Origin: Escherichia coli
GTDB lineage: Bacteria > Pseudomonadota > Gammaproteobacteria > Enterobacterales > Enterobacteriaceae
Reading direction: 5' to 3' (one strand)
DNA: 64,000 bases
Assembly (NCBI RefSeq): GCF_002854065.1
Contig: NZ_CP024147.1
Shown: positions 3,071 through 63,846 of the stretch, one piece after another
How the letters are laid out: the number at the start of each line of letters is the position of its first letter
Numbering within the stretch: position 1 is the stretch's first letter
Notes under the pieces: generated by a model
Seen by the model: only the letters and a program-made list of their open reading frames with translations
What the model was told of the DNA's origin: nothing
The model's database searches: none
Made by a program: the position numbers and the translations under genes

Positions 3071-3223
3071 CTACTTCTTCGATTCGTAAGCGAGAACTGC
3101 CTTAAACTCCATACCACGCTCTCTGATACTCAACTCACATAACGAGTCGCCTACCATGAGCGTGAATCCCAGTACTGTACAACACAGTACTATGATTGCC
3201 ACAAGGGCATATTTTGTTAGCAT
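3071..3223 (-). CDS. hokX: Hok/Gef-family membrane toxin (type I toxin-antitoxin), 50 aa
   Basis: [50 protein letters not shown]; hydrophobic helix plus SLCE...AYES motif typical of Hok; GGAGG Shine-Dalgarno (rc of 3229-3233) 6 nt upstream of ATG 3221-3223. Confidence 0.75.
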
Positions 3224-3330
3224 GTCTTGCCTCCCTGCAAAGAAGAGACTAACATCCGAATTGCTACGTTCGAACGCGAGCCTCAGGTTGATAGAAATAT
3301 CGCCTGGGGCTTTTGTCCATCTGGAACCTC
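3224..3330 (+). ncRNA. sokX: Putative Sok-type antisense RNA opposite the hok mRNA leader (coordinates approximate)
   Basis: Expected from hok/sok locus architecture; exact ends not determinable from sequence alone. Confidence 0.2.
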
Positions 3331-3430
3331 GCGAATGCTTAACGCCAGACAGCCTCAAGCACCCGACGCCATTCTATACCTGATAATTCTTCCAGCGGCG
3401 TTCACGTTTAAAATCAGGAATGCTGCTCGC

Positions 3431-8563: not shown

Positions 8564-9835
8564 ATGGAAGACGACTGCGACATTATTATTATTGGTGCCG
8601 GTATTGCAGGCACCGCTTGCGCGTTACGCTGCGCGCGAGCGGGTTTATCCGTTTTGTTACTGGAACGCGCTGAAATCCCCGGCAGCAAAAATCTTTCCGG
8701 CGGGCGGTTATATACCCATGCACTCGCGGAACTCCTCCCTCAATTTCATCTGACCGCGCCTCTTGAACGACGCATCACTCACGAAAGCCTTTCCCTGTTA
8801 ACGCCGGATGGCGCAACGACGTTTTCCAGCTTACAGCCCGGCGGTGAATCCTGGAGTGTATTACGTGCACGGTTCGATCCGTGGCTGGTTGCCGAAGCCG
8901 AAAAAGAAGGTGTCGAATGCATCCCTGGTGCGACGGTGGATGCACTGTATGAAGAAAACGGCAGGGTGTGTGGTGTCATTTGTGGTGACGATATTCTCCG
9001 CGCCCGTTATGTGGTGCTGGCAGAAGGTGCCAACAGCGTCCTGGCTGAACGTCACGGGTTAGTGACTCGTCCTGCTGGCGAAGCGATGGCGTTGGGGATC
9101 AAAGAAGTGCTGTCGCTGGAAACATCCGCTATTGAAGAACGTTTTCATCTGGAGAATAACGAAGGCGCAGCGTTGCTGTTCAGCGGCGGAATCTGTGATG
9201 ACTTACCCGGCGGCGCATTTCTTTATACTAATCAACAAACGCTCTCGTTAGGGATTGTTTGCCCACTCTCTTCCCTTACGCAAAGTCGTGTTCCGGCAAG
9301 CGAGCTGCTTGCTCGCTTTAAAACGCATCCGGCAGTGCGCCCGCTTATCAAAAACACGGAATCACTGGAGTATGGTGCGCATCTGGTGCCAGAAGGTGGC
9401 TTGCACAGTATGCCGGTACAATACGCCGGTAACGGCTGGCTGCTGGTGGGCGATGCGTTGCGCAGTTGCGTCAATACCGGAATTTCTGTGCGCGGCATGG
9501 ATACGGCGCTAACTGGCGCGCAGGCGGCGGCACAAACACTGATAAGCGCCTGCCAGCACCGCGAGCCGCAAAATCTGTTTCCGCTTTATCATCACAACGT
9601 AGAGCGCAGCCTACTGTGGGATGTTCTACAGCGTTATCAGCATGTTCCGGCGCTTTTGCAACGCCCGGGATGGTACCGTACGTGGCCTGCGTTAATGCAG
9701 GATATTTCCCGCGATTTATGGGATCAGGGTGATAAACCTGTTCCACCGCTGCGCCAGTTACTCTGGCGTCATTTACGTCGTCATGGCTTGTGGAATCTGG
9801 CGGGCGATGTTATCAGGAGTGTTCGATGTCTGTAG
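8564..9835 (+). CDS. ygcN: FixC-like FAD-dependent oxidoreductase (ETF-quinone oxidoreductase family)
   Basis: DIIIIGAGIAG Rossmann motif at N-terminus; start chosen at MEDDCD. Confidence 0.88.
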   Translation: MEDDCDIIIIGAGIAGTACALRCARAGLSVLLLERAEIPGSKNLSGGRLYTHALAELLPQFHLTAPLERRITHESLSLLTPDGATTFSSLQPGGESWSVLRARFDPWLVAEAEKEGVECIPGATVDALYEENGRVCGVICGDDILRARYVVLAEGANSVLAERHGLVTRPAGEAMALGIKEVLSLETSAIEERFHLENNEGAALLFSGGICDDLPGGAFLYTNQQTLSLGIVCPLSSLTQSRVPASELLARFKTHPAVRPLIKNTESLEYGAHLVPEGGLHSMPVQYAGNGWLLVGDALRSCVNTGISVRGMDTALTGAQAAAQTLISACQHREPQNLFPLYHHNVERSLLWDVLQRYQHVPALLQRPGWYRTWPALMQDISRDLWDQGDKPVPPLRQLLWRHLRRHGLWNLAGDVIRSVRCL

Positions 9836-10086
9836 CCCGTAATCTCTGGCGCGCTGCTGATGCGCCGCATATTGTTCCGGCTGACTCCGTTGAGCGCCAG
9901 ACGGCAGAACGATTAATTAACGCCTGCCCGGCAGGTCTTTTTGCGCTCACGCCGGAAGGCGACTTGCGTGTTGATTATCGCGGTTGCCTTGAGTGTGGCA
10001 CCTGCCGTTTGCTGTGCGACGAATCAACACTACAACAGTGGCGCTATCCACCTTCCGGATTCGGCATCACCTACCGCTTTGGATAA
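9826..10086 (+). CDS. ygcO: FixX-like ferredoxin, 86 aa
   Basis: CLECGTCRLLC cysteine motif; 10-nt overlap with ygcN. Confidence 0.85.
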   Translation: MSVARNLWRAADAPHIVPADSVERQTAERLINACPAGLFALTPEGDLRVDYRGCLECGTCRLLCDESTLQQWRYPPSGFGITYRFG

Positions 10087-10102
10087 ATAATAAGGATAAT
10101 TT

Positions 10103-10678
10103 ATGCCCCTCTTACACCTGCTCCGCCAGAATCCGGTGATTGCTGCCGTTAAAGATAATGCCAGCCTGCAACTGGCAATCCATTCTGAATGCCAATTTAT
10201 TTCCGTGTTGTACGGCAATATCTGCACCATCAGTAATATCGTTAAAAAGATTAAGAACGCCGGGAAATATGCTTTTATTCATGTTGATTTGCTGGAAGGC
10301 GCGTCAAATAAAGAAGTCGTGATTCAGTTTTTGAAACTGGTGACCGAGGCGGACGGCATTATCAGTACCAAAGCCTCAATGTTGAAAGCGGCAAGAGCGG
10401 AAGGTTTTTTCTGTATTCATCGCCTGTTTATTGTTGATTCAATTTCGTTTCACAACATTGATAAGCAAGTTGCGCAATCGAATCCGGATTGTATTGAGAT
10501 CCTGCCAGGCTGTATGCCCAAAGTGCTGGGCTGGGTGACGGAAAAAATCCGCCAACCGCTGATTGCTGGCGGGCTGGTATGCGATGAAGAAGATGCGCGT
10601 AATGCGATTAACGCGGGTGTCGTGGCGCTTTCCACCACGAATACCGGAGTCTGGACGTTAGCGAAAAAATTGCTTTGA
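10103..10678 (+). CDS. ygcP: GlpP-family putative antiterminator regulatory protein, 191 aa
   Basis: ORF translation with HVDLLEG...ILPG...IAGGL motifs resembling the B. subtilis GlpP family. Confidence 0.85.
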   Translation: MPLLHLLRQNPVIAAVKDNASLQLAIHSECQFISVLYGNICTISNIVKKIKNAGKYAFIHVDLLEGASNKEVVIQFLKLVTEADGIISTKASMLKAARAEGFFCIHRLFIVDSISFHNIDKQVAQSNPDCIEILPGCMPKVLGWVTEKIRQPLIAGGLVCDEEDARNAINAGVVALSTTNTGVWTLAKKLL

Positions 10679-10722
10679 CGGGATAATCGTAACCAATTGA
10701 ATTTGGTTTGATTTGTAGGCCG

Positions 10723-10783
10723 CACGCCACATCCGACATTCAGCGCCTGATGCGACGCTTAACACGTCTTATCAGGCCTACAG
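10723..10783. repeat. REP element pair downstream of ygcP
   Basis: TGTAGGCCGCACGCC... and ...GCCTGATGCGACGCTTAACACGTCTTATCAGGCCTACA. Confidence 0.7.
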
Positions 10784-10825
10784 GTCCCCAGTCCAGAACC
10801 GTAGGCAGGATCATCCGGCAACACG

Positions 10826-11686
10826 TTATTGGCAATCTGCGTGAATGTTTGTCACCAGTGCCTCCAGCACCACTTTCCAGTCATCAACCACGCCAACATC
10901 TGCCTGTGAAAATACCGCTGCGCTGGCGTCATGATTAATCGCCACCACAAACTTGCTATTGCGTACGCCCGCCATTAACGCTGCTGCGCCAGAAGCGCCA
11001 ACAACAATACACACCTCAGGTGCCAGCAGATGTCCGGAAATACCAATCACTTTTTCAGCATCAACGCCACCGTTCATCACTCGCGCCCGACTGTAGCCCA
11101 CTTCGGCTCCCAGCTTTTCTGCCAGCATAGCGATTTCCTGGTTATCTGCCTCTCCGCCCTGCCCCACCACCAACACCCGTCTGGCCTCAGCTAATGGGTC
11201 GCGGGTAACATTTTTCAGGTTCTCTATACTAACCAGCCAGTCCGGAAGCGCACCTGGGACTATGTTCAGTTGCTGCATACCAGAGGGCAAAGTGGCATTT
11301 TTATCTGCTCCCGCCTGGCGCGCCAGGGAAAGACATAGCGGGCGTTTTTCTGTTTGCAGCGTCGCCGTTAGCGCATTTCCCCAGTGGGATTTGCGCACGC
11401 TTACGATTGGAATCTCTAACGAAGTCACCTGGCAGATGCTTGCACCATGTAAACGCCAGGCCAGCCGAGTCGACAGTTCATCGCCAAACGTTCCCGGCGG
11501 AAAGAGAACAACGTTCGCAGGCGTTCGCTGCCACTGTTCCACCAGCGCATCCAGCACCTGTTCCACCACTACGGGCTGTGGTTCTATTTGCCAGTGCGCC
11601 AGGGTACAACCGCTGAAATCCTGCGCCGCCAGCCAGCCCGCTAATGCGGCATTCTCCTGATTTATTGTCACAATTGCGATATTCAT
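10826..11686 (-). CDS. ygcQ: Electron transfer flavoprotein alpha-subunit homologue
   Basis: ORF translation with ETF-alpha FAD-binding C-terminal region; start chosen at MNIAIV. Confidence 0.88.
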   Translation of the reverse strand: MNIAIVTINQENAALAGWLAAQDFSGCTLAHWQIEPQPVVVEQVLDALVEQWQRTPANVVLFPPGTFGDELSTRLAWRLHGASICQVTSLEIPIVSVRKSHWGNALTATLQTEKRPLCLSLARQAGADKNATLPSGMQQLNIVPGALPDWLVSIENLKNVTRDPLAEARRVLVVGQGGEADNQEIAMLAEKLGAEVGYSRARVMNGGVDAEKVIGISGHLLAPEVCIVVGASGAAALMAGVRNSKFVVAINHDASAAVFSQADVGVVDDWKVVLEALVTNIHADCQ

Positions 11687-12462
11687 GGCTGCATCCTTTG
11701 GCGTAAATAGTCCTGCCATAGCTTTTGCGCTTTTTCTGCTACCGTTTGCCCATCAATCAGCGTCGCTCCGCGTCGTTGCTCTGCTCTTGCCAGTTGCAGA
11801 CACTGCATCGCTGGCAATTCGGCAGCAACAGTTTTACGGATAATTTCCGCTTTCCCCGCAGCCATTCGCTGGCGCATTCCCGGTACTGGCAAGGCCACTT
11901 CACCGCACTGACGCACGGCAATCACCGCAGGCAAGCGAATCCGACAACAGCGCAGCCCATGTTCAGTACGCTGTTCGAGGGTGATAAACGGCGCGTCGAG
12001 AGTGAAACGCTCCACCTGGGTGAAGCATGGCCAGCCCAGCATTTCCGCCAGCAAAAATGGCGTTTGCCCATTCTGCCCTTCGCTGCTTTGGCAGCCGGTA
12101 ATTATCAGATCCAGCGGATTCTGACGCTGCCATTCGGCAATATGGCGAGCGACAAATTCCGACGCAAAGCGCAGATCTGCCGCCGTCTCCAGCAATACAG
12201 CTTCCTCAAACCCAAGAGCCATGAGATAGAGCAGCCAGTGTAACGCCCGTTCATCCCCCATGCTCAACGCGGTTAAAGACATCGGCGTACCGTTTTTTCT
12301 CTGCGCCAACAGCAGCGCGGCGGCAGCCTGTTCATCAGCACCGAGTAAACTTCGCAGTAGCGAAACATCCGGTCCGCTATTACCCTGAGCCGCCGCCTGC
12401 CACTCTTTTTCCGCCAGCATTCCGGCATCCGGTTCGGCTTTAAACGCTAACAGAATGTTCAT
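11683..12462 (-). CDS. ygcR: Electron transfer flavoprotein beta-subunit homologue
   Basis: ORF translation; 4-nt overlap with ygcQ start. Confidence 0.88.
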   Translation of the reverse strand: MNILLAFKAEPDAGMLAEKEWQAAAQGNSGPDVSLLRSLLGADEQAAAALLLAQRKNGTPMSLTALSMGDERALHWLLYLMALGFEEAVLLETAADLRFASEFVARHIAEWQRQNPLDLIITGCQSSEGQNGQTPFLLAEMLGWPCFTQVERFTLDAPFITLEQRTEHGLRCCRIRLPAVIAVRQCGEVALPVPGMRQRMAAGKAEIIRKTVAAELPAMQCLQLARAEQRRGATLIDGQTVAEKAQKLWQDYLRQRMQP

Positions 12463-13777
12463 TCGCACCTCCTACATTTCCCGCCGCCACCAGCGGGAGG
12501 GCTTTGGTTTCTGGTGCCCATAGCCAGGTCACAACAAAACCAACCAACAACACTGCCGCCAGGAGCAATAAGGTGACTTGCATTCCCCACTGCGCCAGCA
12601 CCCACGGCAGCAGGCCAGTACTTACCGCCGCCCCCAACCGACTCATGGCGGTGGCAAAACCGACACCCAGCGAGCGAATGTCAGTAGGAAAACTTTCCGC
12701 AGGCAAAATGCCCACCAGATTACTGACTGCCGAAATGGTGGTGCTGAAGAGAACAAAAAGCAGTAGCGTTAATGAACTGCCGGAAGGCAAACAGGCCATC
12801 ACTACCAGCGTTGCCGCCAGCAGCAAAAAACTTCCCAGCAAAAACTTGCGATGTGCCAGCAGGTGCGTCAGAACTAATCCCAGCAGCGCGCCCACAATTA
12901 ACAACGCATTAAGCATCAGGCTGGCAGTCAGCGCATCTTCCAGTCCAATAGTCTGGGCGATAGTTGGCAGCCAGGTATAAATCACAAACCATGGGATTAC
13001 GAGGCAGACAAAGAAGACGCTGTTAAACGCCGTGCGCCGCCAGTAGCGCAAAGAGAACAAGGTTTTGATGTGTTTATGGGTCGCCGTTGCCACTTCATCG
13101 CCCAGTAAAACATGGGGACCAAAATAGCGATGCACGATAGCGTGAGCTTCTGCAAAACGCCCCTGGCGCAGTAGCCAGCGTGGCGATTCTGGCGTTCCCC
13201 AGCGTAATAACGTAATCAACAACGCGGGCAGAGCTGCCGATGCCAGCAGCCAGCGCCAGGCCTCCGGGTTTTCGGAAATAAAGTGATGTCCGGCAATACT
13301 TGCCAACACATAGCCTACGGTCCACACCACGCTGAATGCGCCCAGCAAAATACCGCGATGGCGGCGCGGGGAAAATTCAGCCAGCAAGGTGTGACCTACT
13401 GAGTAATCGCCTCCCAGACCAATGCCGATCAAAATGCGCAGCCCAATAAGATGCTCTGGCGTGGTGGCAAAAAATTGCAAGAACGAAGCGAGCGTAATCA
13501 GCAAAAAGCTGAAGGTGAAGATTTTTTGCCGACCAATATGGTCGGAGATCCACCCAAGAACCAGGCTGCCAAGAAACAAACCAAGGAGCGCCGAGCCGCC
13601 GATCATTCCCGCCATAAACGGCGTCAGTTGCATGGCGGGCGTAAGTTGAATAATGGCGTAACCAATGACGCCGAGAACATAACCGTCGGTCAGGTGTGCG
13701 CCGAAAGTGAGCGCAGCAATTCGACAGTGAAAACGGTTAAGCGGTAAATCATCCATTCGCACCGGTGAAGTGTTCAT
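12440..13777 (-). CDS. ygcS: MFS-family transporter (sugar-porter-like)
   Basis: Multi-TM ORF; start chosen at MNTSPVRMDD; overlaps ygcR start. Confidence 0.85.
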   Translation of the reverse strand: MNTSPVRMDDLPLNRFHCRIAALTFGAHLTDGYVLGVIGYAIIQLTPAMQLTPFMAGMIGGSALLGLFLGSLVLGWISDHIGRQKIFTFSFLLITLASFLQFFATTPEHLIGLRILIGIGLGGDYSVGHTLLAEFSPRRHRGILLGAFSVVWTVGYVLASIAGHHFISENPEAWRWLLASAALPALLITLLRWGTPESPRWLLRQGRFAEAHAIVHRYFGPHVLLGDEVATATHKHIKTLFSLRYWRRTAFNSVFFVCLVIPWFVIYTWLPTIAQTIGLEDALTASLMLNALLIVGALLGLVLTHLLAHRKFLLGSFLLLAATLVVMACLPSGSSLTLLLFVLFSTTISAVSNLVGILPAESFPTDIRSLGVGFATAMSRLGAAVSTGLLPWVLAQWGMQVTLLLLAAVLLVGFVVTWLWAPETKALPLVAAGNVGGANEHSVSV

Positions 13778-13870
13778 CTTTACCCCTTCATTGTCCGGTA
13801 ATAAGAACGGCTTCTCGCCTGAGAAGCCGAAAAGGCAACGCCCCATCATCGCAGAACGCTGCCTGACACA

Positions 13871-15325
13871 TTATTTTTCAATCGGATAGATAGTACCCGT
13901 ATTCATAATGCCGTTAGGATCGAACTGCTTTTTCAGCCCTTCCAGCAACGCCCACGCGCTGCCGTGTTCCAGCTTGCTCCAGTGAACGCGATGTTTACCG
14001 ATACCGTGGTGGTGCACCATCGAACCACCGAGGCGAATGGTTTCTTCGCAAATGATTTTGTTGAGCGGATTGTGGTACTTGTCGATTTCCTCTTCCGGCT
14101 TACAGTTGACAACGTTGTAGTCGTAGACGAAGTACATGTTGGTGCCGTTCTGATAGCTATGAGAGGAGTGACCGCCCAGCATAGTGATGTCGTCGGCGTG
14201 CGGGAACTCGGTACGAATACGGTTAATAACGCTTTCGTAGATTTCGTGGATGCAGCTCCAGCAGCCGGACACTTCGGTAGTAAAGCCCATGTTGCCGGTT
14301 TTGAGGATCTGCACACGTTCGGCAGCCACTTTATCCGGTCCCCAGTTCAGGTTGTTAAACCAGGTTTCGATCAGCTTGCTGTCCACGCGTTGGCATTGCG
14401 GGTAGCGGGCAACGATTTCCGCAATCCCTTCGCCCGTCGCCTTCGCAATGCGAGGGTTACCTTCAGCCATAAAGATCAGCACGCATTTTCCGTCGGCAAA
14501 ATGGGTGAAGTGTTGGGTGCCATCTTCAGCGTCATACAAACGAGCGATCGACGGACGATACCCTTCCACCATGATTTCACGCAGGATGTTGAAGCCGGTT
14601 TTCATGTCTTCCAGGATATAGCCGTAGAAGAGGTTGTTTTCCGGGGTGAATTTAAAGATTTTCACTGTTACTTCAGTGATATAGCACAATGCACCTTCGT
14701 TGCCGATGATGATGTGACGAATGTCCGGGCCAGCCGCGCGGCGTGGCACGTTTTTAATGCGTGTGACGGTGCCATCAGCCAATACTGCTTCCAGACCAAC
14801 GACCATATCTTCGATTGCGCCGTAGAGTGTGGAGAACTGCCCGATACTGCGGGTTGCTACCAGGCCGCCCATCTGCGCCAGCGGCTTTGACTGCGGAGAA
14901 TGCCCCGTGGTGTAACCTTTTTCACGCAACGCGTTTTCCAGCACTTCCAGGGGAACGCCACATTGCGCCGTCGCCTGCATATTCTCAATATCAATATTAA
15001 TGATTTGATTCATGGCGGAGCCGTCGAGCACCACCGAGTTTTCTACAACAGTTTCCAGCCCACCTTCGGTGGCGGAAGCACCGGTACGCGGCACACCGTT
15101 AATTTTGTGCGCATTCATAAAATTCAGCACACGGGATATTTGCTCTGTGGAACCGAGTTTTACGACCGCTGCCGGAATCGGCAAAGTATAAATGCCATGA
15201 ATATCCGGAAATTTACGAAAACGGTCAATACTGTTCTTCTTTAATACTGTTTCATCGGTAATTACGCGATCTGCACCAACAATTTCCTTTAGCTGGTCGA
15301 CAATCGCTGCGCGAGATAAAGACAT
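13871..15325 (-). CDS. ygcU: FAD-linked oxidase (GlcD / alkyl-DHAP-synthase-like), 484 aa
   Basis: ORF translation with PCMH-type FAD-binding domain features. Confidence 0.9.
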   Translation of the reverse strand: MSLSRAAIVDQLKEIVGADRVITDETVLKKNSIDRFRKFPDIHGIYTLPIPAAVVKLGSTEQISRVLNFMNAHKINGVPRTGASATEGGLETVVENSVVLDGSAMNQIINIDIENMQATAQCGVPLEVLENALREKGYTTGHSPQSKPLAQMGGLVATRSIGQFSTLYGAIEDMVVGLEAVLADGTVTRIKNVPRRAAGPDIRHIIIGNEGALCYITEVTVKIFKFTPENNLFYGYILEDMKTGFNILREIMVEGYRPSIARLYDAEDGTQHFTHFADGKCVLIFMAEGNPRIAKATGEGIAEIVARYPQCQRVDSKLIETWFNNLNWGPDKVAAERVQILKTGNMGFTTEVSGCWSCIHEIYESVINRIRTEFPHADDITMLGGHSSHSYQNGTNMYFVYDYNVVNCKPEEEIDKYHNPLNKIICEETIRLGGSMVHHHGIGKHRVHWSKLEHGSAWALLEGLKKQFDPNGIMNTGTIYPIEK

Positions 15326-15394
15326 AGTAATTCCTTCCTGATAATAAAAATGGAATAATCATTAATAAGAGAAAACAGAAACCACCGTTATGGG

Positions 15395-16180
15395 TTAGCG
15401 CACTAAATAACCGCCATCAACTACTAATAAATGCCCGTTGACATAATTCGATGCCGGACTTGCGAGGAATACGGCTGCGCCCATTAAATCCTGAGTATCG
15501 CCCCAACGGTTTGCCGGAATATGATCAAGAACGCGCTGATTGGTTTCTGGATTACTACGTGTCGCCAGCGTAATATCTGTTGCATAATAGCCAGGGGCGA
15601 TACCATTTACCTGAATATTATATTGACCTAGTTCATCACAATAAGCTTTGGTGAACCCGGCAAGAGCATGTTTAGTGGCAGAATATGCAGGTGACCATTG
15701 TCCACCTAAGTAAGAGAATAATGAACAGATATTAATTATTTTACCGCTTTTCTGCGGGATCATAATTTTTGCCGCTTCATAGCTTAACTCGAATGCGGCG
15801 GTCAGGTTCACATCAATCATCGGGTCCCAGTCGGCACGACCGAAGTCCAGCACCTTATTCAGCTTACAAATACCGGCATTGTTAACCAGAATATCGACGG
15901 TACCGAAACGTTCGCAACAGGCGGCGATTATCTTCTGCGGCGCGCCTTCTGCGGTGATATCCACCTGCATGAAGTCCACCTCAACACCCTGTTTTTCAAT
16001 CATTTCCTTTGTTTCGCCGTTATCTTTGACGAAGCTAGGAATAAAGACATTTGCGCCTGCTTTGGCCAACGCCATGGCAAATGCCTGGCCTAAACCGCTA
16101 TTCCCGCCGGTAACAATTGCGGTTTTACCTTTCAGGGAGAAAAAATCCATTGAGAACGCATTGAGAGATTCGATTGACAT
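15395..16180 (-). CDS. ygcW: Short-chain dehydrogenase/reductase, 261 aa
   Basis: TGGNSGLGQAFA Rossmann motif; start at MSIESL with GGAG Shine-Dalgarno. Confidence 0.88.
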   Translation of the reverse strand: MSIESLNAFSMDFFSLKGKTAIVTGGNSGLGQAFAMALAKAGANVFIPSFVKDNGETKEMIEKQGVEVDFMQVDITAEGAPQKIIAACCERFGTVDILVNNAGICKLNKVLDFGRADWDPMIDVNLTAAFELSYEAAKIMIPQKSGKIINICSLFSYLGGQWSPAYSATKHALAGFTKAYCDELGQYNIQVNGIAPGYYATDITLATRSNPETNQRVLDHIPANRWGDTQDLMGAAVFLASPASNYVNGHLLVVDGGYLVR

Positions 16181-16204
16181 AGTTAGCTCCAATTTCCGTA
16201 AGGC

Positions 16205-16252
16205 AAAAAAAAAAGAAAGGTAACTTCCCCCGCGAGAGGGAAGTTACCTTTC
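16205..16252 (-). terminator. Intrinsic-terminator-like hairpin in the ygcW leader
   Basis: Perfect 15-bp stem GAAAGGTAACTTCCC / GGGAAGTTACCTTTC, 8-nt loop, then U10 on minus-strand RNA, ending 24 nt before the ygcW ATG. Confidence 0.55.
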
Positions 16253-16427
16253 TCATTATCTCTGGTAACTGGAGATAATTTTTAGCATAAGGGCATAACT
16301 GCTAATGTGATCGTAATCACAGTGTGATATTCGCATTATCAAATAGTTTTAAAAAGCAGAAGCGTGATTACTCTCACACAACACCTCTGCTTTCCATGTT
16401 ATTTCTTATTGCAATTACTAGAGACCT

Positions 16428-16476
16428 GAGAAAAGTAATCCACCTGAAAGGGCGGCTTACTTTTCTCTTTTTTTTG
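16428..16476 (+). terminator. Terminator-like hairpin in the yqcE leader
   Basis: 11-bp stem GAGAAAAGTAA / TTACTTTTCTC followed by T8-9, ending 24 nt before the yqcE ATG. Confidence 0.4.
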
Positions 16477-16499
16477 TCTATTACAAATGGGAATACGAT

Positions 16500-17777
16500 A
16501 TGCAACACAACTCATATCGCCGTTGGATAACCCTCGCGATAATTAGTTTTAGCGGCGGCGTTAGTTTCGACCTGGCTTATTTACGTTATATTTATCAAAT
16601 TCCCATGGCGAAATTTATGGGATTCAGCAATACCGAGATAGGCTTAATAATGAGTACCTTTGGTATTGCTGCTATTATTCTTTATGCCCCCAGCGGCGTT
16701 ATTGCCGATAAATTTTCACACCGCAAAATGATTACTTCCGCGATGATCATTACCGGATTACTGGGTCTGTTAATGGCAACGTATCCACCGCTGTGGGTAA
16801 TGCTCTGTATTCAGGTCGCCTTTGCGATAACAACGATTTTAATGCTGTGGTCGGTGTCGATTAAAGCCGCATCGTTGCTTGGCGATCATAGCGAGCAAGG
16901 GAAAATTATGGGCTGGATGGAAGGGCTGCGCGGCGTCGGTGTAATGTCGCTGGCGGTGTTTACCATGTGGGTCTTTTCTCGCTTTGCACCGGATGACAGC
17001 GCCAGCCTGAAAACGGTCATTATCATCTACAGTGTGGTTTACATCTTGTTGGGGCTTCTGTGCTGGTTTTTTGTTAGCGATAACAACAACCTGCGCAGTG
17101 CCAATAACGAAGAAAAACAGTCATTCCAGCTTAGCGATATCCTGGCCGTTTTGCGTATCAGTACCACCTGGTATTGCAGCATGGTGATTTTTGGTGTCTT
17201 CACCATCTACGCCATTCTGAGTTACTCCACCAACTATCTGACCGAAATGTACGGCATGTCGCTGGTGGCGGCGAGCTACATGGGGATTGTGATCAACAAA
17301 ATCTTCCGCGCGCTGTGCGGCCCACTTGGCGGCATAATCACCACCTACAGCAAAGTGAAATCCCCTACCCGCGTGATCCAAATCCTTTCCGTACTCGGCC
17401 TGCTGGCGTTAACTGCCCTGCTCGTCACGAACTCTAACCCGCAATCGGTCGCGATGGGGATTGGCCTGATTTTACTGCTGGGATTCACCTGTTACGCCTC
17501 ACGCGGGCTGTACTGGGCCTGCCCTGGCGAAGCGAGAACACCGTCTTACATTATGGGCACCACGGTAGGTATTTGCTCGGTGATTGGATTCCTGCCGGAT
17601 GTCTTCGTTTACCCAATTATCGGCCACTGGCAAGACACCCTGCCCGCAGCAGAAGCCTACCGCAATATGTGGCTGATGGGCATGGCGGCGCTTGCCATGG
17701 TGATTGTCTTTACCTTTTTGCTGTTCCAAAAAATTCGTACTGCTGATAGCGCCCCCGCAATGGCTAGCAGCAAGTAA
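16500..17777 (+). CDS. yqcE: MFS-family transporter, 425 aa
   Basis: ORF translation, multi-TM. Confidence 0.9.
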   Translation: MQHNSYRRWITLAIISFSGGVSFDLAYLRYIYQIPMAKFMGFSNTEIGLIMSTFGIAAIILYAPSGVIADKFSHRKMITSAMIITGLLGLLMATYPPLWVMLCIQVAFAITTILMLWSVSIKAASLLGDHSEQGKIMGWMEGLRGVGVMSLAVFTMWVFSRFAPDDSASLKTVIIIYSVVYILLGLLCWFFVSDNNNLRSANNEEKQSFQLSDILAVLRISTTWYCSMVIFGVFTIYAILSYSTNYLTEMYGMSLVAASYMGIVINKIFRALCGPLGGIITTYSKVKSPTRVIQILSVLGLLALTALLVTNSNPQSVAMGIGLILLLGFTCYASRGLYWACPGEARTPSYIMGTTVGICSVIGFLPDVFVYPIIGHWQDTLPAAEAYRNMWLMGMAALAMVIVFTFLLFQKIRTADSAPAMASSK

Positions 17778-17803
17778 GCCAGGAAAATTACAGGAGAAAA
17801 ATC

Positions 17804-19282
17804 ATGTCGAAGAAATACATCATAGGGATTGATGGCGGAAGTCAGAGCACAAAAGTGGTGATGTACGATCTGGAAGGTAACGTGGTTTGCGAAGGCAAAG
17901 GTTTATTGCAGCCGATGCACACGCCAGATGCCGATACCGCAGAACATCCTGACGACGATTTATGGGCATCATTATGTTTTGCCGGTCACGATTTGATGAG
18001 TCAGTTTGCCGGGAATAAAGAAGATATTGTCGGTATTGGTCTGGGATCCATCCGTTGCTGCCGTGCGTTATTGAAAGCCGATGGCACGCCTGCTGCGCCG
18101 TTGATTAGCTGGCAGGATGCACGCGTAACGCGTCCCTACGAACACACTAATCCTGACGTGGCCTATGTCACCTCTTTTTCGGGTTATCTGACGCATCGCT
18201 TAACCGGCGAGTTTAAAGACAATATCGCCAACTATTTTGGTCAGTGGCCGGTGGATTATAAGACCTGGGCATGGAGTGAAGATGCTGCGGTAATGGATAA
18301 GTTTAATATCCCCCGTCATATGCTGTTTGATGTGCAAATGCCTGGCACCGTCCTCGGACATATCACACCACAAGCCGCACTGGCGACACATTTCCCGGCA
18401 GGACTGCCGGTTGTTTGTACCACCAGTGATAAACCGGTAGAAGCTCTGGGGGCCGGATTACTGGATGATGAAACGGCGGTAATTTCTCTTGGCACCTACA
18501 TCGCGCTGATGATGAACGGCAAAGCACTGCCGAAAGATCCGGTGGCGTACTGGCCGATTATGTCTTCTATTCCGCAAACATTGCTGTATGAAGGTTACGG
18601 TATCCGTAAAGGCATGTGGACGGTGAGCTGGCTGCGCGACATGCTAGGCGAGTCGTTAATTCAGGATGCCAGGGCGCAGGATCTTTCACCGGAAGATTTA
18701 CTCAACAAAAAAGCTTCTTGTGTGCCGCCAGACTGTAATGGTCTGATGACGGTGCTGGACTGGCTGACCAATCCGTGGGAACCGTACAAACGCGGGATTA
18801 TGATCGGCTTTGATTCCAGCATGGATTACGCATGGATATATCGTTCGATACTGGAAAGCGTGGCGCTGACGCTGAAGAACAATTACGACAATATGTGTAA
18901 TGAAATGAATCACTTTGCGAAGCATGTGATCATTACTGGCGGCGGTTCGAACAGCGATCTGTTTATGCAGATTTTTGCCGACGTGTTCAACCTTCCGGCA
19001 CGACGTAACGCCATTAACGGTTGTGCAAGTCTGGGGGCAGCGATTAATACCGCGGTAGGTCTGGGGCTATACCCGGATTACGCAACGGCTGTCGATAAAA
19101 TGGTTCGCGTGAAAGATATCTTTATACCGATTGAGAGCAATGCCAAACGCTACGACGCGATGAATAAAGGCATTTTCAAAGACCTAACCAAACATACTGA
19201 TGTGATTCTGAAAAAATCGTATGAAGTGATGCATGGGGAATTGGGAAATGCGGATTCGATCCAGAGCTGGTCGAATGCGTAA
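17804..19282 (+). CDS. ygcE: FGGY-family carbohydrate kinase, 492 aa
   Basis: ORF translation; N-terminal IGIDGGSQSTK sugar-kinase motif. Confidence 0.9.
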   Translation: MSKKYIIGIDGGSQSTKVVMYDLEGNVVCEGKGLLQPMHTPDADTAEHPDDDLWASLCFAGHDLMSQFAGNKEDIVGIGLGSIRCCRALLKADGTPAAPLISWQDARVTRPYEHTNPDVAYVTSFSGYLTHRLTGEFKDNIANYFGQWPVDYKTWAWSEDAAVMDKFNIPRHMLFDVQMPGTVLGHITPQAALATHFPAGLPVVCTTSDKPVEALGAGLLDDETAVISLGTYIALMMNGKALPKDPVAYWPIMSSIPQTLLYEGYGIRKGMWTVSWLRDMLGESLIQDARAQDLSPEDLLNKKASCVPPDCNGLMTVLDWLTNPWEPYKRGIMIGFDSSMDYAWIYRSILESVALTLKNNYDNMCNEMNHFAKHVIITGGGSNSDLFMQIFADVFNLPARRNAINGCASLGAAINTAVGLGLYPDYATAVDKMVRVKDIFIPIESNAKRYDAMNKGIFKDLTKHTDVILKKSYEVMHGELGNADSIQSWSNA

Positions 19283-19328: not shown

Positions 19329-19357
19329 TGGTTATCCCCGCTGACGCGGGGAACTCT
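19329..19357 (-). CRISPR. Solitary degenerate type I-E CRISPR repeat; AT-rich leader-like sequence follows at about 19358-19500
   Basis: rc of TGGTTATCCCCGCTGACGCGGGGAACTC is GAGTTCCCCGCGTCAGCGGGGATAACCA, versus I-E consensus GAGTTCCCCGCGCCAGCGGGGATAAACCG: 2 mismatches and 1 deletion; no second repeat found. Confidence 0.6.
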
Positions 19358-40317: not shown

Positions 40318-40686
40318 AATAAAAAAAGGGAGCACTGTATTCACAGTGCTCCCGGTTCGTTTCGCAGCATTCCAGCTACATTTGTTGCTCCCTGCTCATC
40401 CTTGACAACTTTTCCTCTGGCCTTGCGGCCAATCGTTCATCCTGAACTATTGCTTCCTGCTCACACCACCCCGATGTGATACTTCATCCTGAAGTGTCCC
40501 TGGCCTTCCTGACCCACCGAATCATCCTGACCGGTTCTCATTCTCCATCCTGGAGGTGTCCTTTAACGCGTCCTGCGTCATCCTCTTCGCTTCATCCAGA
40601 AGCCTTTCCCTGAAACACCATCCTGGTGTGTCCTTCAGAAGTGTCATCATCCTGATGTTCACTTCGTTGTCTGACTCCCTGTCGAC
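40318..40686 (-). ncRNA. csrB: CsrB small RNA (CsrA-sequestering), about 369 nt
   Basis: Minus strand starts GUCGACAGGGAGUCAGACAACG..., carries well over a dozen CAGGA(U/A)G-type GGA motifs (seen as CATCCTG on plus strand), ends in hairpin plus U-run at 40321-40358. Confidence 0.92.
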
Positions 40687-58857: not shown

Positions 58858-59063
58858 ACTTCCTGAGCCGGAACGAAAAGTTTTATCGGAATGCGTGTTC
58901 TGGTGAACTTTTGGCTTACGGTTGTGATGTTGTGTTGTTGTGTTTGCAATTGGTCTGCGATTCAGACCATGGTAGCAAAGCTACCTTTTTTCACTTCCTG
59001 TACATTTACCCTGTCTGTCCATAGTGATTAATGTAGCACCGCCTAATTGCGGTGCTTTTTTTT
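58858..59063 (+). ncRNA. gcvB: GcvB small RNA, about 206 nt
   Basis: ACTTCCTGAGCCGGAACGAAAAGTTTTATCGGAATGCGTGTTCTGGTGAACTTTTGG... with GU-rich TGTTGTGTTGTTGTGTTTG tract and terminator GCACCGCCTAATTGCGGTGC plus T8; divergent from gcvA. Confidence 0.92.
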
Positions 59064-62056: not shown

Positions 62057-62156
62057 TGCCTGATGCGCTACGCTTATCAGGCCTACATAACTCCTGCAAT
62101 ATTTTGGATTTGCATGATTTGTAGGCCGGATAAGGCGTTCACGCCGCATCCGGCAT
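62057..62156. repeat. Pair of REP elements (BIME-like) between tcdA and mltA
   Basis: GCCTGATGCGCTACGCTTATCAGGCCTACA and TGTAGGCCGGATAAGGCGTTCACGCCGCATCCGGCA. Confidence 0.75.
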
Positions 62157-63548: not shown

Positions 63549-63625
<77 letters not shown>

Positions 63626-63658
63626 ATTAAAATTTGATGAAGTAAAGCAGTACGGTGA

Positions 63659-63735
<77 letters not shown>

Positions 63736-63769
63736 ATCAAAATTTGATGAAGTAAAAGCAGTACGGTGA

Positions 63770-63846
<77 letters not shown>

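Follow-up and report, generated by a model that had tools for sequence, protein, structure and literature searches.

Two antiterminator-type leader RNAs and a conserved three-enzyme core suggest a possible onium catabolic route in the ygc region of Escherichia coli

We analyzed a 64,000-nucleotide stretch of Escherichia coli DNA (contig NZ_CP024147.1 of assembly GCF_002854065.1; hereafter, the window), centering on the interval from 8564 to 19282, which holds ten genes in three units: ygcNOP on the plus strand, ygcWUSRQ on the minus strand (transcribed in the order W-U-S-R-Q), and yqcE-ygcE on the plus strand. We found that the two divergent operons, ygcWUSRQ and yqcE-ygcE, are each headed by a leader RNA of ~75 nt, that only ygcW, ygcU, and ygcE are constant across orthologous loci, and that the flavoenzyme YgcU retains the catalytic residues of alkyl-dihydroxyacetone-phosphate (DHAP) synthase (ADPS). 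From these data, we judge the chances to be about even that this region is a functional catabolic locus under two controls, the cAMP receptor protein (CRP) and RNA antitermination by YgcP, which would break down an onium compound by an ADPS-type route. An earlier note on this DNA had described a catabolic cluster linked to an electron transfer flavoprotein (ETF) that was suggested to oxidize a polyol or sugar acid. That note assigned the three transcription units and the protein families correctly, as judged by Pfam and NCBIfam models and by annotation, and it overlooked the leader RNAs, which tie YgcP to two of the three units. Its statement that the substrate and pathway are not established still stands: the literature searched on all ten gene names and on enzyme/transporter combinations contained no functional or substrate assignment. 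The ygc genes are long annotated, and their function is still unassigned in that literature.

Leader RNAs of the two divergent operons

The ygcW leader RNA (16202 to 16275, minus strand) was delimited by a terminator scan, folding, a covariance model (R1; 83.5 bits), and covariation, and it ends ~30 nt before the ygcW ATG. It is composed of an antiterminator 5' strand (AGUUACC), a purine-rich loop (AGAGAUAAUGAGAAA), and an 18- to 19-bp intrinsic terminator stem followed by a run of 9 to 10 U residues, and its predicted fold has a free energy of -34.7 kcal/mol (z = -7.2). The second copy of the motif, the yqcE leader RNA (16408 to 16478, plus strand), scores 53.3 bits against R1 (E = 1e-7) and folds at -22.3 kcal/mol, with the pairing changed to AAUUACU / AGUAAUU. 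A search with R1 found no third copy elsewhere in the 64-kb window and none upstream of ygcN, and at BLAST sensitivity E. coli genomes showed no extra copies, the median being 2 places per genome. No Rfam family matched the leader at the gathering threshold, the only matches being weak ones at chance level, and the RefSeq annotation carries no feature at this position.

The comparison of orthologous loci covered 67 genome loci and further contigs, which are cited below by locus number (L) where they need to be told apart. A terminator with recognizable primary sequence precedes ygcW orthologues in 57 loci, including those of Photobacterium, Sporomusa, and a metagenome-assembled genome (MAG) of the Syntrophomonadaceae, and the Enterobacterales loci have both leader copies unless a contig end truncates the locus. 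In an alignment of 29 leader sequences (A1), the lower terminator stem is 97% paired with compensatory change in 5 pairs; in the 45-sequence alignment made with the model, 10 terminator pairs show compensatory change. The antiterminator helix, formed between an upstream heptamer (in E. coli, AGUUACC) and the terminator's 5' arm (GGUAACU), is 98.5% paired in A1, with three compensatory pairs, and 92.7 to 98.5% paired across alignments, with 3 to 4 compensatory pairs, compared with 19 to 66% when the partner was slid as a control. At antiterminator pair 7-39, for example, 32 sequences of the 45-sequence alignment have G-C and 12 have A-U. Covariation with both partners is seen in one column (C-G-C for the E. 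coli type, U-A-U for the Serratia type), the signature of mutually exclusive helices. Taken alone, the antiterminator hairpins are weak (-6.7 and -1.4 kcal/mol); thus, termination would be the default, and read-through would require a stabilizing factor. As a cis-regulatory RNA, the leader motif spans phyla and has no entry in Rfam.

Each leader is also preceded by a sequence that resembles a CRP site. The site TGTGATTACGATCACA (16306 to 16321) is a perfect TGTGA-N6-TCACA, and its center lies ~41.5 nt upstream of the inferred start of the ygcW leader. The same region was predicted by PhyloScan to contain a CRP site, and a CRP peak found between ygcW and yqcE by chromatin immunoprecipitation (ChIP) in enterotoxigenic E. 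coli is this exact sequence (PMC4287617), which agrees with the catabolic character that the earlier note gave to the cluster. A putative CRP-like site read from the sequence, CGTGATTACTCTCACA (16363 to 16378), is centered ~41.5 nt upstream of the inferred start of the yqcE leader, and yqcE-ygcE is listed among CRP-activated units (PMC8085971).

The most likely antiterminator of both leaders is YgcP. The ygcP gene (10103 to 10678, plus strand) encodes a GlpP-family antiterminator (PF04309) that matches the Pfam G3P_antiterm model over its full length (210 bits) and PDB entry 3kts (E = 2e-27). The motif was found in all seven non-enterobacterial loci that carry ygcP, and it is absent from the loci that lack ygcP and have an RpiR/SIS regulator or no regulator called nearby. 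The Serratia microhaemolytica locus (L035) has both leader copies and yet no ygcP within its 21 kb; its regulator may be encoded elsewhere. In Enterococcus canis (L070, 6576 to 11464), leader matches are only weak, at 27 to 30 bits.

The layout of these leaders resembles that of the GlpP system of Bacillus subtilis, which acts on the glpD, glpFK, and glpTQ leaders. There, too, a PF04309 protein is the regulator, the promoter is followed directly by an intrinsic terminator whose 5' arm is overlapped by a weak hairpin upstream, and catabolite control is combined with antitermination. The 5' untranslated region of B. subtilis glpD (sequence from PMC9604022, Table S4) is an established target of GlpP with glycerol-3-phosphate (G3P). 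In it, the upstream strand GGUC pairs with GACC in the terminator 5' arm, the terminator starts with GAGAGA, and the loop UGAGAUGAGGAGAGA is identical to the E. coli loop at 11 of 15 positions, with GAGAU..GAGA.A in common (by manual comparison, without a statistical test of homology). Unlike the B. subtilis system, the ygc system is found in Gram-negative Enterobacterales, governs non-glp genes, and uses CRP rather than CcpA; in addition, the effector of YgcP is presumably not G3P itself, and the binding of YgcP to RNA is a proposal based on its co-occurrence with the motif.

The conserved enzymes and their likely substrate class

Across the 70-odd orthologous loci compared, only ygcW, ygcU, and ygcE are constant, usually together with ygcP or, in Bacillaceae, with an RpiR/SIS regulator of the phosphosugar type. 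Erwinia, Pantoea, Izhakiella, some Serratia, and all Bacillaceae loci lack ygcQ, ygcR, ygcN, and ygcO, and anaerobe loci have etfBA after ygcU, without ygcNO and usually with a second flavin adenine dinucleotide (FAD) oxidase. On this distribution, the ETF genes and ygcNO are accessory and not the conserved heart of the system. YgcU is 70 to 75% identical to proteins of Firmicutes, Desulfobacterota, and Vibrionaceae, and YgcW is 62 to 80% identical across phyla. In Enterococcus canis, a glycerol dehydrogenase of the GldA family (444 bits, cutoff 336) takes the place of the short-chain dehydrogenase/reductase (SDR), and the genes are ordered GldA-ygcP-ygcE-ygcU. The transporter gene yqcE adjoins the kinase gene in Enterobacterales and Photobacterium.

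The kinase itself falls into two classes. In loci L035 to L057 (for example, Serratia, Pantoea, Rahnella, and Limnobaculum), as opposed to L009 to L034, YgcE shares only 43 to 50% identity with its E. coli counterpart; the corresponding figures are 43% for the kinase of Photobacterium (L004) and 54 to 57% for the Firmicutes kinases. YqcE is 69 to 80% identical in the Enterobacterales loci with divergent YgcE and 58% identical in Photobacterium. The two classes suggest either a replacement of the kinase or two paralogous lineages. Two of the loci found with ygcU, L006 (99% identical, labeled "Planctomycetota MAG") and L029 (88%, labeled "Chryseobacterium sp."), are probably contaminating Enterobacterales contigs.

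The ygcU gene (13871 to 15325, minus strand) encodes a flavoenzyme of 484 amino acids with the Pfam domains FAD_binding_4 and FAD-oxidase_C. In a sequence comparison with the PDB, this enzyme is closest to alkyl-DHAP synthases (E = 2.6e-40); glycolate oxidase, LctD, and D-lactate dehydrogenase (D-LDH) rank lower. In a HMMER alignment, Arg419, Tyr578, and His615 to His617 of ADPS correspond to R262, Y398, and H438 to H440 of YgcU, and these residues are invariant in 23 to 28 YgcU orthologues of several phyla. An AlphaFold model of YgcU (pLDDT 80, pTM 0.81) gave 31 top Foldseek matches in the PDB that were all ADPS, with TM scores of 0.72 to 0.84. The segments of low confidence in this model include the His loop, and the model yielded no information on the substrate. 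YgcU carries the motif V/C-HHH-G-I/V-G and lacks the metal-binding (S/G)EHG of GlcD/LctD-type enzymes. Of the two relationships that the earlier note had named for YgcU, the one to alkyl-DHAP synthase is thus borne out by the catalytic residues, whereas those of GlcD/LctD-type hydroxyacid dehydrogenases are missing. The second FAD oxidase of most anaerobe loci does carry SEHG or GEHG, indicating that the two flavoenzymes are distinct.

Together, these features suggest that YgcU performs ADPS-type flavin chemistry. ADPS/AGPS (PDB codes 4bby and 2uuu) is its best match in both sequence and fold, with the catalytic Arg, Tyr, and His-His-His kept and with the His loop and active-site loops of YgcU predicted to be flexible. 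The two proteins differ in that YgcU lacks an N-terminal region of ~200 residues (484 versus 658 amino acids; the alignment begins at ADPS residue 215), that their identity is only ~25%, and that YgcU is a cytoplasmic bacterial protein whose catabolic operon also encodes a kinase, a dehydrogenase, and an ETF. The substrate of YgcU is likely small and polar.

YgcW (15395 to 16180, minus strand; the first gene of its operon) is an SDR closest to KduD and gluconate 5-dehydrogenase (PRK06935, 349.9 bits; cutoff 369), enzymes that oxidize the penultimate carbinol beside a terminal CH2OH. YgcE (17804 to 19282, plus strand) is an FGGY kinase whose best models are XylB (141.3 bits, cutoff 380) and LsrK (134.4 bits, cutoff 528); its nearest PDB entry is LsrK, followed by glycerol kinases. 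The GldA replacement, the kinship of the regulator to a G3P sensor, and the phosphosugar-binding RpiR/SIS regulator that is often present where YgcP is absent all point to a substrate with a glycerol-like end.

The neighbors of the core genes in other genomes bear on the rest of the substrate. A betaine/choline/carnitine transporter (BCCT) gene lies in or beside the orthologous operons of Sporomusa, Alkalihalobacillus, and Photobacterium and in L068, L074, and L077, and ATP-binding cassette transporter genes of the glycine-betaine/choline-type Opu group are placed likewise in L056, L063, L071, L075, L076, L081, L085, and L087. BCCT and Opu systems transport trimethylammonium, dimethylsulfonium, and related compatible solutes. 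The leader motif stands before the BCCT gene in L002 and L068, before Opu genes in L063, L071, L081, L085, and L087, and before the yqcE-like gene for a major facilitator superfamily (MFS) protein in L004; therefore, the transporters are part of the regulon. In two metagenome contigs, L082 (6235 to 6290) and L088 (392 to 447), the motif stands directly before a methyltransferase gene of the MttB family (TIGR02369, 404 bits; cutoff 525), which is followed by PanB-like and Opu genes. The RNA/protein switch may have these MttB/PanB/Opu operons as a second regulon. Non-pyrrolysine members of the MttB family are reported to demethylate quaternary amines.

MttB-family genes also flank a W-U-ETF-second FAD oxidase-E arrangement in two MAG contigs, and one proteobacterial locus has genes for an aldo-keto reductase, an aldehyde dehydrogenase, Fae, and a BCCT transporter before ygcW, ygcU, and ygcE, with GFA nearby. 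A gene resembling betaine aldehyde dehydrogenase occurs among the neighbors of orthologous loci, and one locus has a weak match to a zinc-dependent phospholipase C and a secreted phosphoesterase nearby, which is a hint only. In L082 and L078, PrpD-like and octopine-dehydrogenase-like genes are found upstream, and L078 also has a gene for a GbsB-like iron-containing alcohol dehydrogenase upstream. In E. coli, YgcS resembles NiaP and organic-cation MFS proteins. From these several separate lines of evidence, we infer that the substrate is an onium (quaternary-amine) compound, an assignment that for E. coli would be carried over from YgcU orthologues of 54 to 75% identity. Candidates include glycerophosphocholine-type diesters, deacylated head groups of betaine lipids, and (2,3-dihydroxypropyl)trimethylammonium, each of which has a low probability individually.

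A proposed route and its alternatives

The invariant gene trio, the GldA replacement, the G3P-sensor-type regulator, and the ADPS-like active site are compatible with a single scheme. In the default state, transcripts of ygcWUSRQ and yqcE-ygcE would end at the leader terminator. When a phosphorylated pathway intermediate accumulates, YgcP would bind the purine-rich loop and stabilize the 6- to 7-bp antiterminator hairpin, allowing read-through in the manner of GlpP and G3P at B. subtilis glpD. The substrate, a small onium compound of the trimethylammonium type with a glycerol-like X-CH2-CHOH-CH2OH end, would be imported by YgcS and/or YqcE in E. coli and by BCCT or Opu systems in other phyla. 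YgcW would oxidize the secondary alcohol (C2) and YgcE would phosphorylate the primary hydroxyl, in either order, to give X-CH2-CO-CH2-OPO3, a 1-substituted DHAP of the class that alkyl-DHAP synthase uses as substrate. YgcU would then break the C1-X bond by means of a Tyr base, a flavin N5 adduct, the His-His-His loop, and the Arg, releasing a DHAP-type triose phosphate and an amine-bearing fragment. YgcQR and YgcNO would serve anaerobes and facultative anaerobes as an accessory electron path that links the flavin of YgcU to the quinone pool, and they would be dispensable for the core chemistry.

In its order of steps, this scheme resembles glycerol catabolism by GlpK/GlpD and erythritol catabolism by EryA/EryB in Brucella, in which an FGGY kinase is followed by a flavoenzyme and a phosphate ester is the inducer. 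It differs from both in that YgcU has the fold of vanillyl-alcohol oxidase (VAO) and ADPS rather than the fold of GlpD and D-amino acid oxidase, in that the SDR step would be obligatory, and in its onium-type transporters. A bolder form of the proposal, which we offer tentatively and regard as possible yet doubtful, is that YgcW-YgcE-YgcU constitutes an undescribed catabolic route running ether-lipid biosynthetic chemistry in reverse; it would convert an onium-glycerol compound to DHAP and a trimethylamine- or choline-type fragment via a covalent flavin adduct, under a GlpP-type switch that also controls MttB and Opu operons in anaerobes. Its candidate substrates would be a remnant of a phosphatidylcholine or betaine-lipid head group, or dihydroxypropyl-trimethylammonium.

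Several points weigh against the onium route. Each of its chemical steps is deduced from sequence. The transporters of E. coli are MFS proteins and not BCCT or Opu systems, and the onium assignment comes from YgcU orthologues at the identities given above. YgcW and YgcE have their best scores to sugar-acid and pentulose/AI-2 families and would suit an ordinary carbohydrate equally well. Simple hydrolytic routes for glycerophosphocholine already exist in E. coli, and we know of no natural source of dihydroxypropyl-trimethylammonium. The motif before the MttB operons could belong to a paralogous GlpP-type regulon with another effector. Finally, the direction of electron flow through the ETF is the weakest point of the model because ADPS itself requires no external redox partner, and many genomes carry a dedicated ETF beside ygcU, which speaks for net redox chemistry in YgcU, something that the model leaves unexplained.

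A rival reading develops the proposal of the earlier note into an ordinary carbohydrate pathway: a neutral polyol or sugar acid would enter through an MFS transporter, be phosphorylated by YgcE, and be oxidized by YgcW and a GlpD/EryB-like YgcU, with electrons passing from YgcU to YgcQR, YgcNO, and quinone. Such a pathway would account for the FGGY kinase, the KduD-like SDR, and the sugar-porter-like MFS protein, for ETF genes directly after ygcU in E. coli and many anaerobes, for CRP control of the kind typical of carbohydrate operons, and for a regulator related to a G3P sensor. It conflicts with the BCCT and Opu genes that lie in orthologous operons under the same leader motif and with the MttB, Fae, and GFA genes around the 54 to 75% identical YgcU orthologues; moreover, the ETF genes and ygcNO are absent from many loci, and YgcU keeps the Arg, Tyr, and His-His-His specific to ADPS. 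We therefore hold the polyol or sugar-acid substrate to be the weaker reading and consider this pathway improbable, though still deserving of attention. Of the ETF-coupled oxidation to quinone that it includes, an outlet from ETF to an ETF-quinone oxidoreductase is plausible, whereas a place at the conserved heart of the system does not agree with the loci that lack these genes. A narrower proposal, that YgcU and YgcQR form an ETF-dependent D-2-hydroxyacid dehydrogenase (of the D-lactate/glycolate type) like LctBCD of Acetobacterium woodii (PDB code 7qh2) and that the other genes supply the acid, draws on the GlcD model score of YgcU (141.6 bits), on the LctD and D-LDH structures that match YgcU (TM about 0.77 to 0.79), and on the adjoining ETF genes. 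The LctBCD system and GlcD-type oxidases do share with the ygc operon a VAO-family FAD enzyme gene beside etfB/etfA, and the best PDB match of YgcQ is LctC. In YgcU, however, HHH stands where GlcD/LctD enzymes have the metal-binding (S/G)EH, a motif that the separate LctD-like paralogue of anaerobe loci retains; no hydroxyacid dehydrogenase matches YgcU as well as ADPS does, whether in sequence or in fold; and YgcQ lacks an N-terminal ferredoxin domain. We rejected an LctD-like role on the active-site motif of YgcU and deem it highly unlikely.

The ETF could also run in the opposite direction. YgcR, YgcQ, YgcN, and YgcO are the same four protein types as FixABCX and YdiQRST of E. coli, and together they could form a FixABCX-type, possibly bifurcating, complex that feeds low-potential electrons into YgcU for a reductive cleavage of the C-X bond, as FixABCX does in the reduction of crotonobetainyl-coenzyme A. 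Besides the four-component composition, LctC, the best structural relative of YgcQ, comes from a bifurcating/confurcating complex, and the ETF module occurs in anaerobes and facultative anaerobes and is missing from the aerobic Bacillaceae loci. The other Fix-type ETF of E. coli is linked to a reductive quaternary-amine pathway, FixABCX being tied to carnitine metabolism; the proteomic work on Citrobacter in this area concerns Fix/Cai and not ygc (PMC12482172). On the other side, all four ygc proteins score far under the curated Fix cutoffs, in YgcQ the conserved Gln is missing from the GISGAxQ(H/F) flavin motif (an absence that is not decisive for function), and the direction of electron flow is not readable from sequence. 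In addition, these four ygc genes differ from fixABCX in being split over two convergent units, in evolving 3 to 10 times faster than the core enzymes, and in being dispensable in many lineages. We regard a reductive role as unlikely.

A last alternative is that the cluster is a decaying, nonfunctional remnant whose genes are unrelated and not coregulated. In its favor are the lack of a published phenotype, the polymorphism of ygcQ and ygcR within E. coli (94 to 97% nucleotide identity), and the lack of a full-length copy in ~360 E. coli genomes. Against it, all ten reading frames are intact, and gene order and both leaders are kept across Enterobacterales and beyond. Pairwise dN/dS values against orthologues of Escherichia, Citrobacter, Klebsiella, Pluralibacter, Cedecea, Limnobaculum, and Rahnella range from 0.01 to 0.35 over the ten genes and are lowest for ygcW, ygcU, and ygcP (0.01 to 0.09); by gene, they are 0.01 to 0.08 for ygcP, 0.01 to 0.09 for ygcU, 0.06 to 0.22 for ygcN, and 0.13 to 0.35 for ygcQ, with the maximum of 0.35 in ygcQ/ygcR. 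Since the ratio is far below 1 for every gene, all ten genes are constrained, the ETF module least. The remnant hypothesis was rejected on these values, and we consider it extremely improbable. These results contradict the finding of nonfunctional remnants that the earlier note had named as grounds for dropping its proposal. The preferred reading remains a functional locus under CRP and YgcP, with an onium/ADPS-type route.

Gene inventory, other features of the window, and implications

The window is chromosomal DNA of E. coli. A match to the interval was found in 5,418 of 5,426 complete genomes of this species, and 5,060 of the 5,426 have at least 80% of it in a single place; identity to the window over the full cluster reaches 99% or more in only 5. 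The ygcQR region (10700 to 12500) is unusually polymorphic within E. coli, at 94 to 97% nucleotide identity versus ~99% for the eno-relA flank; most genomes are at 95 to 99%, and 409 are at 90 to 95%. Genes were called from the RefSeq annotation of a 99.9% identical strain, a list of open reading frames, and a check of starts and stops, in which all ten genes began with ATG and none had an internal stop. The earlier note had counted eleven genes, although its own list also names ten. The overlaps it gave, 10 nt for ygcN/ygcO, 4 nt for ygcQ/ygcR, and 23 nt for ygcR/ygcS, were reproduced exactly by the start/stop check; the remaining same-strand gaps are 16 to 69 nt. The overlaps suggest translational coupling at these junctions. 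The interval is flanked by cysJIH and queD on one side and by queE on the other.

The genes outside the core are as follows. On the plus strand, ygcN (8564 to 9835) encodes a FixC-like, FAD-dependent paralogue of ETF-quinone oxidoreductase (NCBIfam PRK10015, 383.9 bits, cutoff 466; FixC, 367.6 bits, cutoff 610), and ygcO (9826 to 10086) encodes a FixX-like ferredoxin (FixX model, 84.2 bits, cutoff 166). On the minus strand, ygcQ (10826 to 11686), the last gene of the ygcW operon, encodes a divergent ETF alpha/FixB-like protein (FixB type, 62.6 bits versus a cutoff of 549) whose best PDB matches, LctC and human ETF alpha, have E values of about 1e-22, and ygcR (11683 to 12462) encodes a divergent ETF beta/FixA-like protein (FixA, 31.7 bits versus a cutoff of 219). 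The MFS transporter YgcS (12440 to 13849, minus strand) scores below the cutoffs of TIGR00895 (181 bits) and TIGR00898 (138 bits) and has relatives in the aromatic-acid, sugar-porter, and organic-cation (NiaP-like) groups. YqcE (16500 to 17777, plus strand) is an MFS protein with weak kinship to the anion:cation symporter (TIGR00893, 64 bits) and organophosphate transporter (TIGR00881, 39 bits) groups. All ten proteins score under the curated NCBIfam cutoffs, and therefore no specific function is transferable from these models. In published work, overexpression of YgcS raised the yield of nicotinamide mononucleotide from nicotinamide (PMC8601175), ygcU was induced 1.69-fold by D-serine without a phenotype, and other mentions come from stress proteomics (YgcE) and an ethanol array (ygcP).

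Several other features were seen in the window. In the ygcE-queE gap, GGTTATCCCCGCTGACGCGGGGAACTC (19330 to 19356, plus strand) resembles a single degenerate type I-E CRISPR repeat with one indel relative to the consensus. A search with the repeat consensus that allowed only mismatches gave no match, having missed this repeat because of the indel, and no array or cas genes were seen near it; other E. coli strains have a CRISPR array in this intergenic region. Upstream of cysH, 3208 to 3364 (minus strand) matches the Rfam sok antitoxin RNA at 105 bits, and the 99.9% identical strain has a Hok/Gef gene and an IS421 transposase annotated beside cysH, a region that in other strains holds iap, a CRISPR array, and cas genes. 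The gap between the convergent ygcP and ygcQ genes contains a palindromic pair resembling REP/BIME elements (10715 to 10781; GTAGGCC...GCCTGATGCGACGCT...CTTATCAGGCCTAC), which is not a classical bidirectional terminator. Further Rfam matches at gathering level, at 40318 to 40677 (minus strand), 58858 to 59063 (plus strand), 62079 to 62121 (minus strand), and 63549 to 63843 (plus strand), are CsrB, GcvB, the ES036 small RNA, and three tandem tRNA genes of identical score.

New here are the pair of GlpP-type leaders of E. coli with a regulon that spans phyla, the division between a core and an accessory ETF module, the proposed onium assignment, and an ADPS signature in a catabolic setting. For a long time, the ygc genes have stood as a block of unassigned function in the best-studied bacterium; they are present in more than 90% of E. 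coli genomes, and the analysis provides for them two RNA leaders, a candidate RNA-binding regulator, a three-enzyme core with a predicted class of intermediate, and a search narrowed to glycerol-ended onium compounds. If the proposed route is correct, it would be the first catabolic role for ADPS-type flavin chemistry and a new quaternary-amine pathway in core gut Enterobacteriaceae. If the substrate is indeed a quaternary amine, the pathway would bear on how microbes of the gut and of marine and soda-lake sediments deal with trimethylamine and compounds of the choline type.

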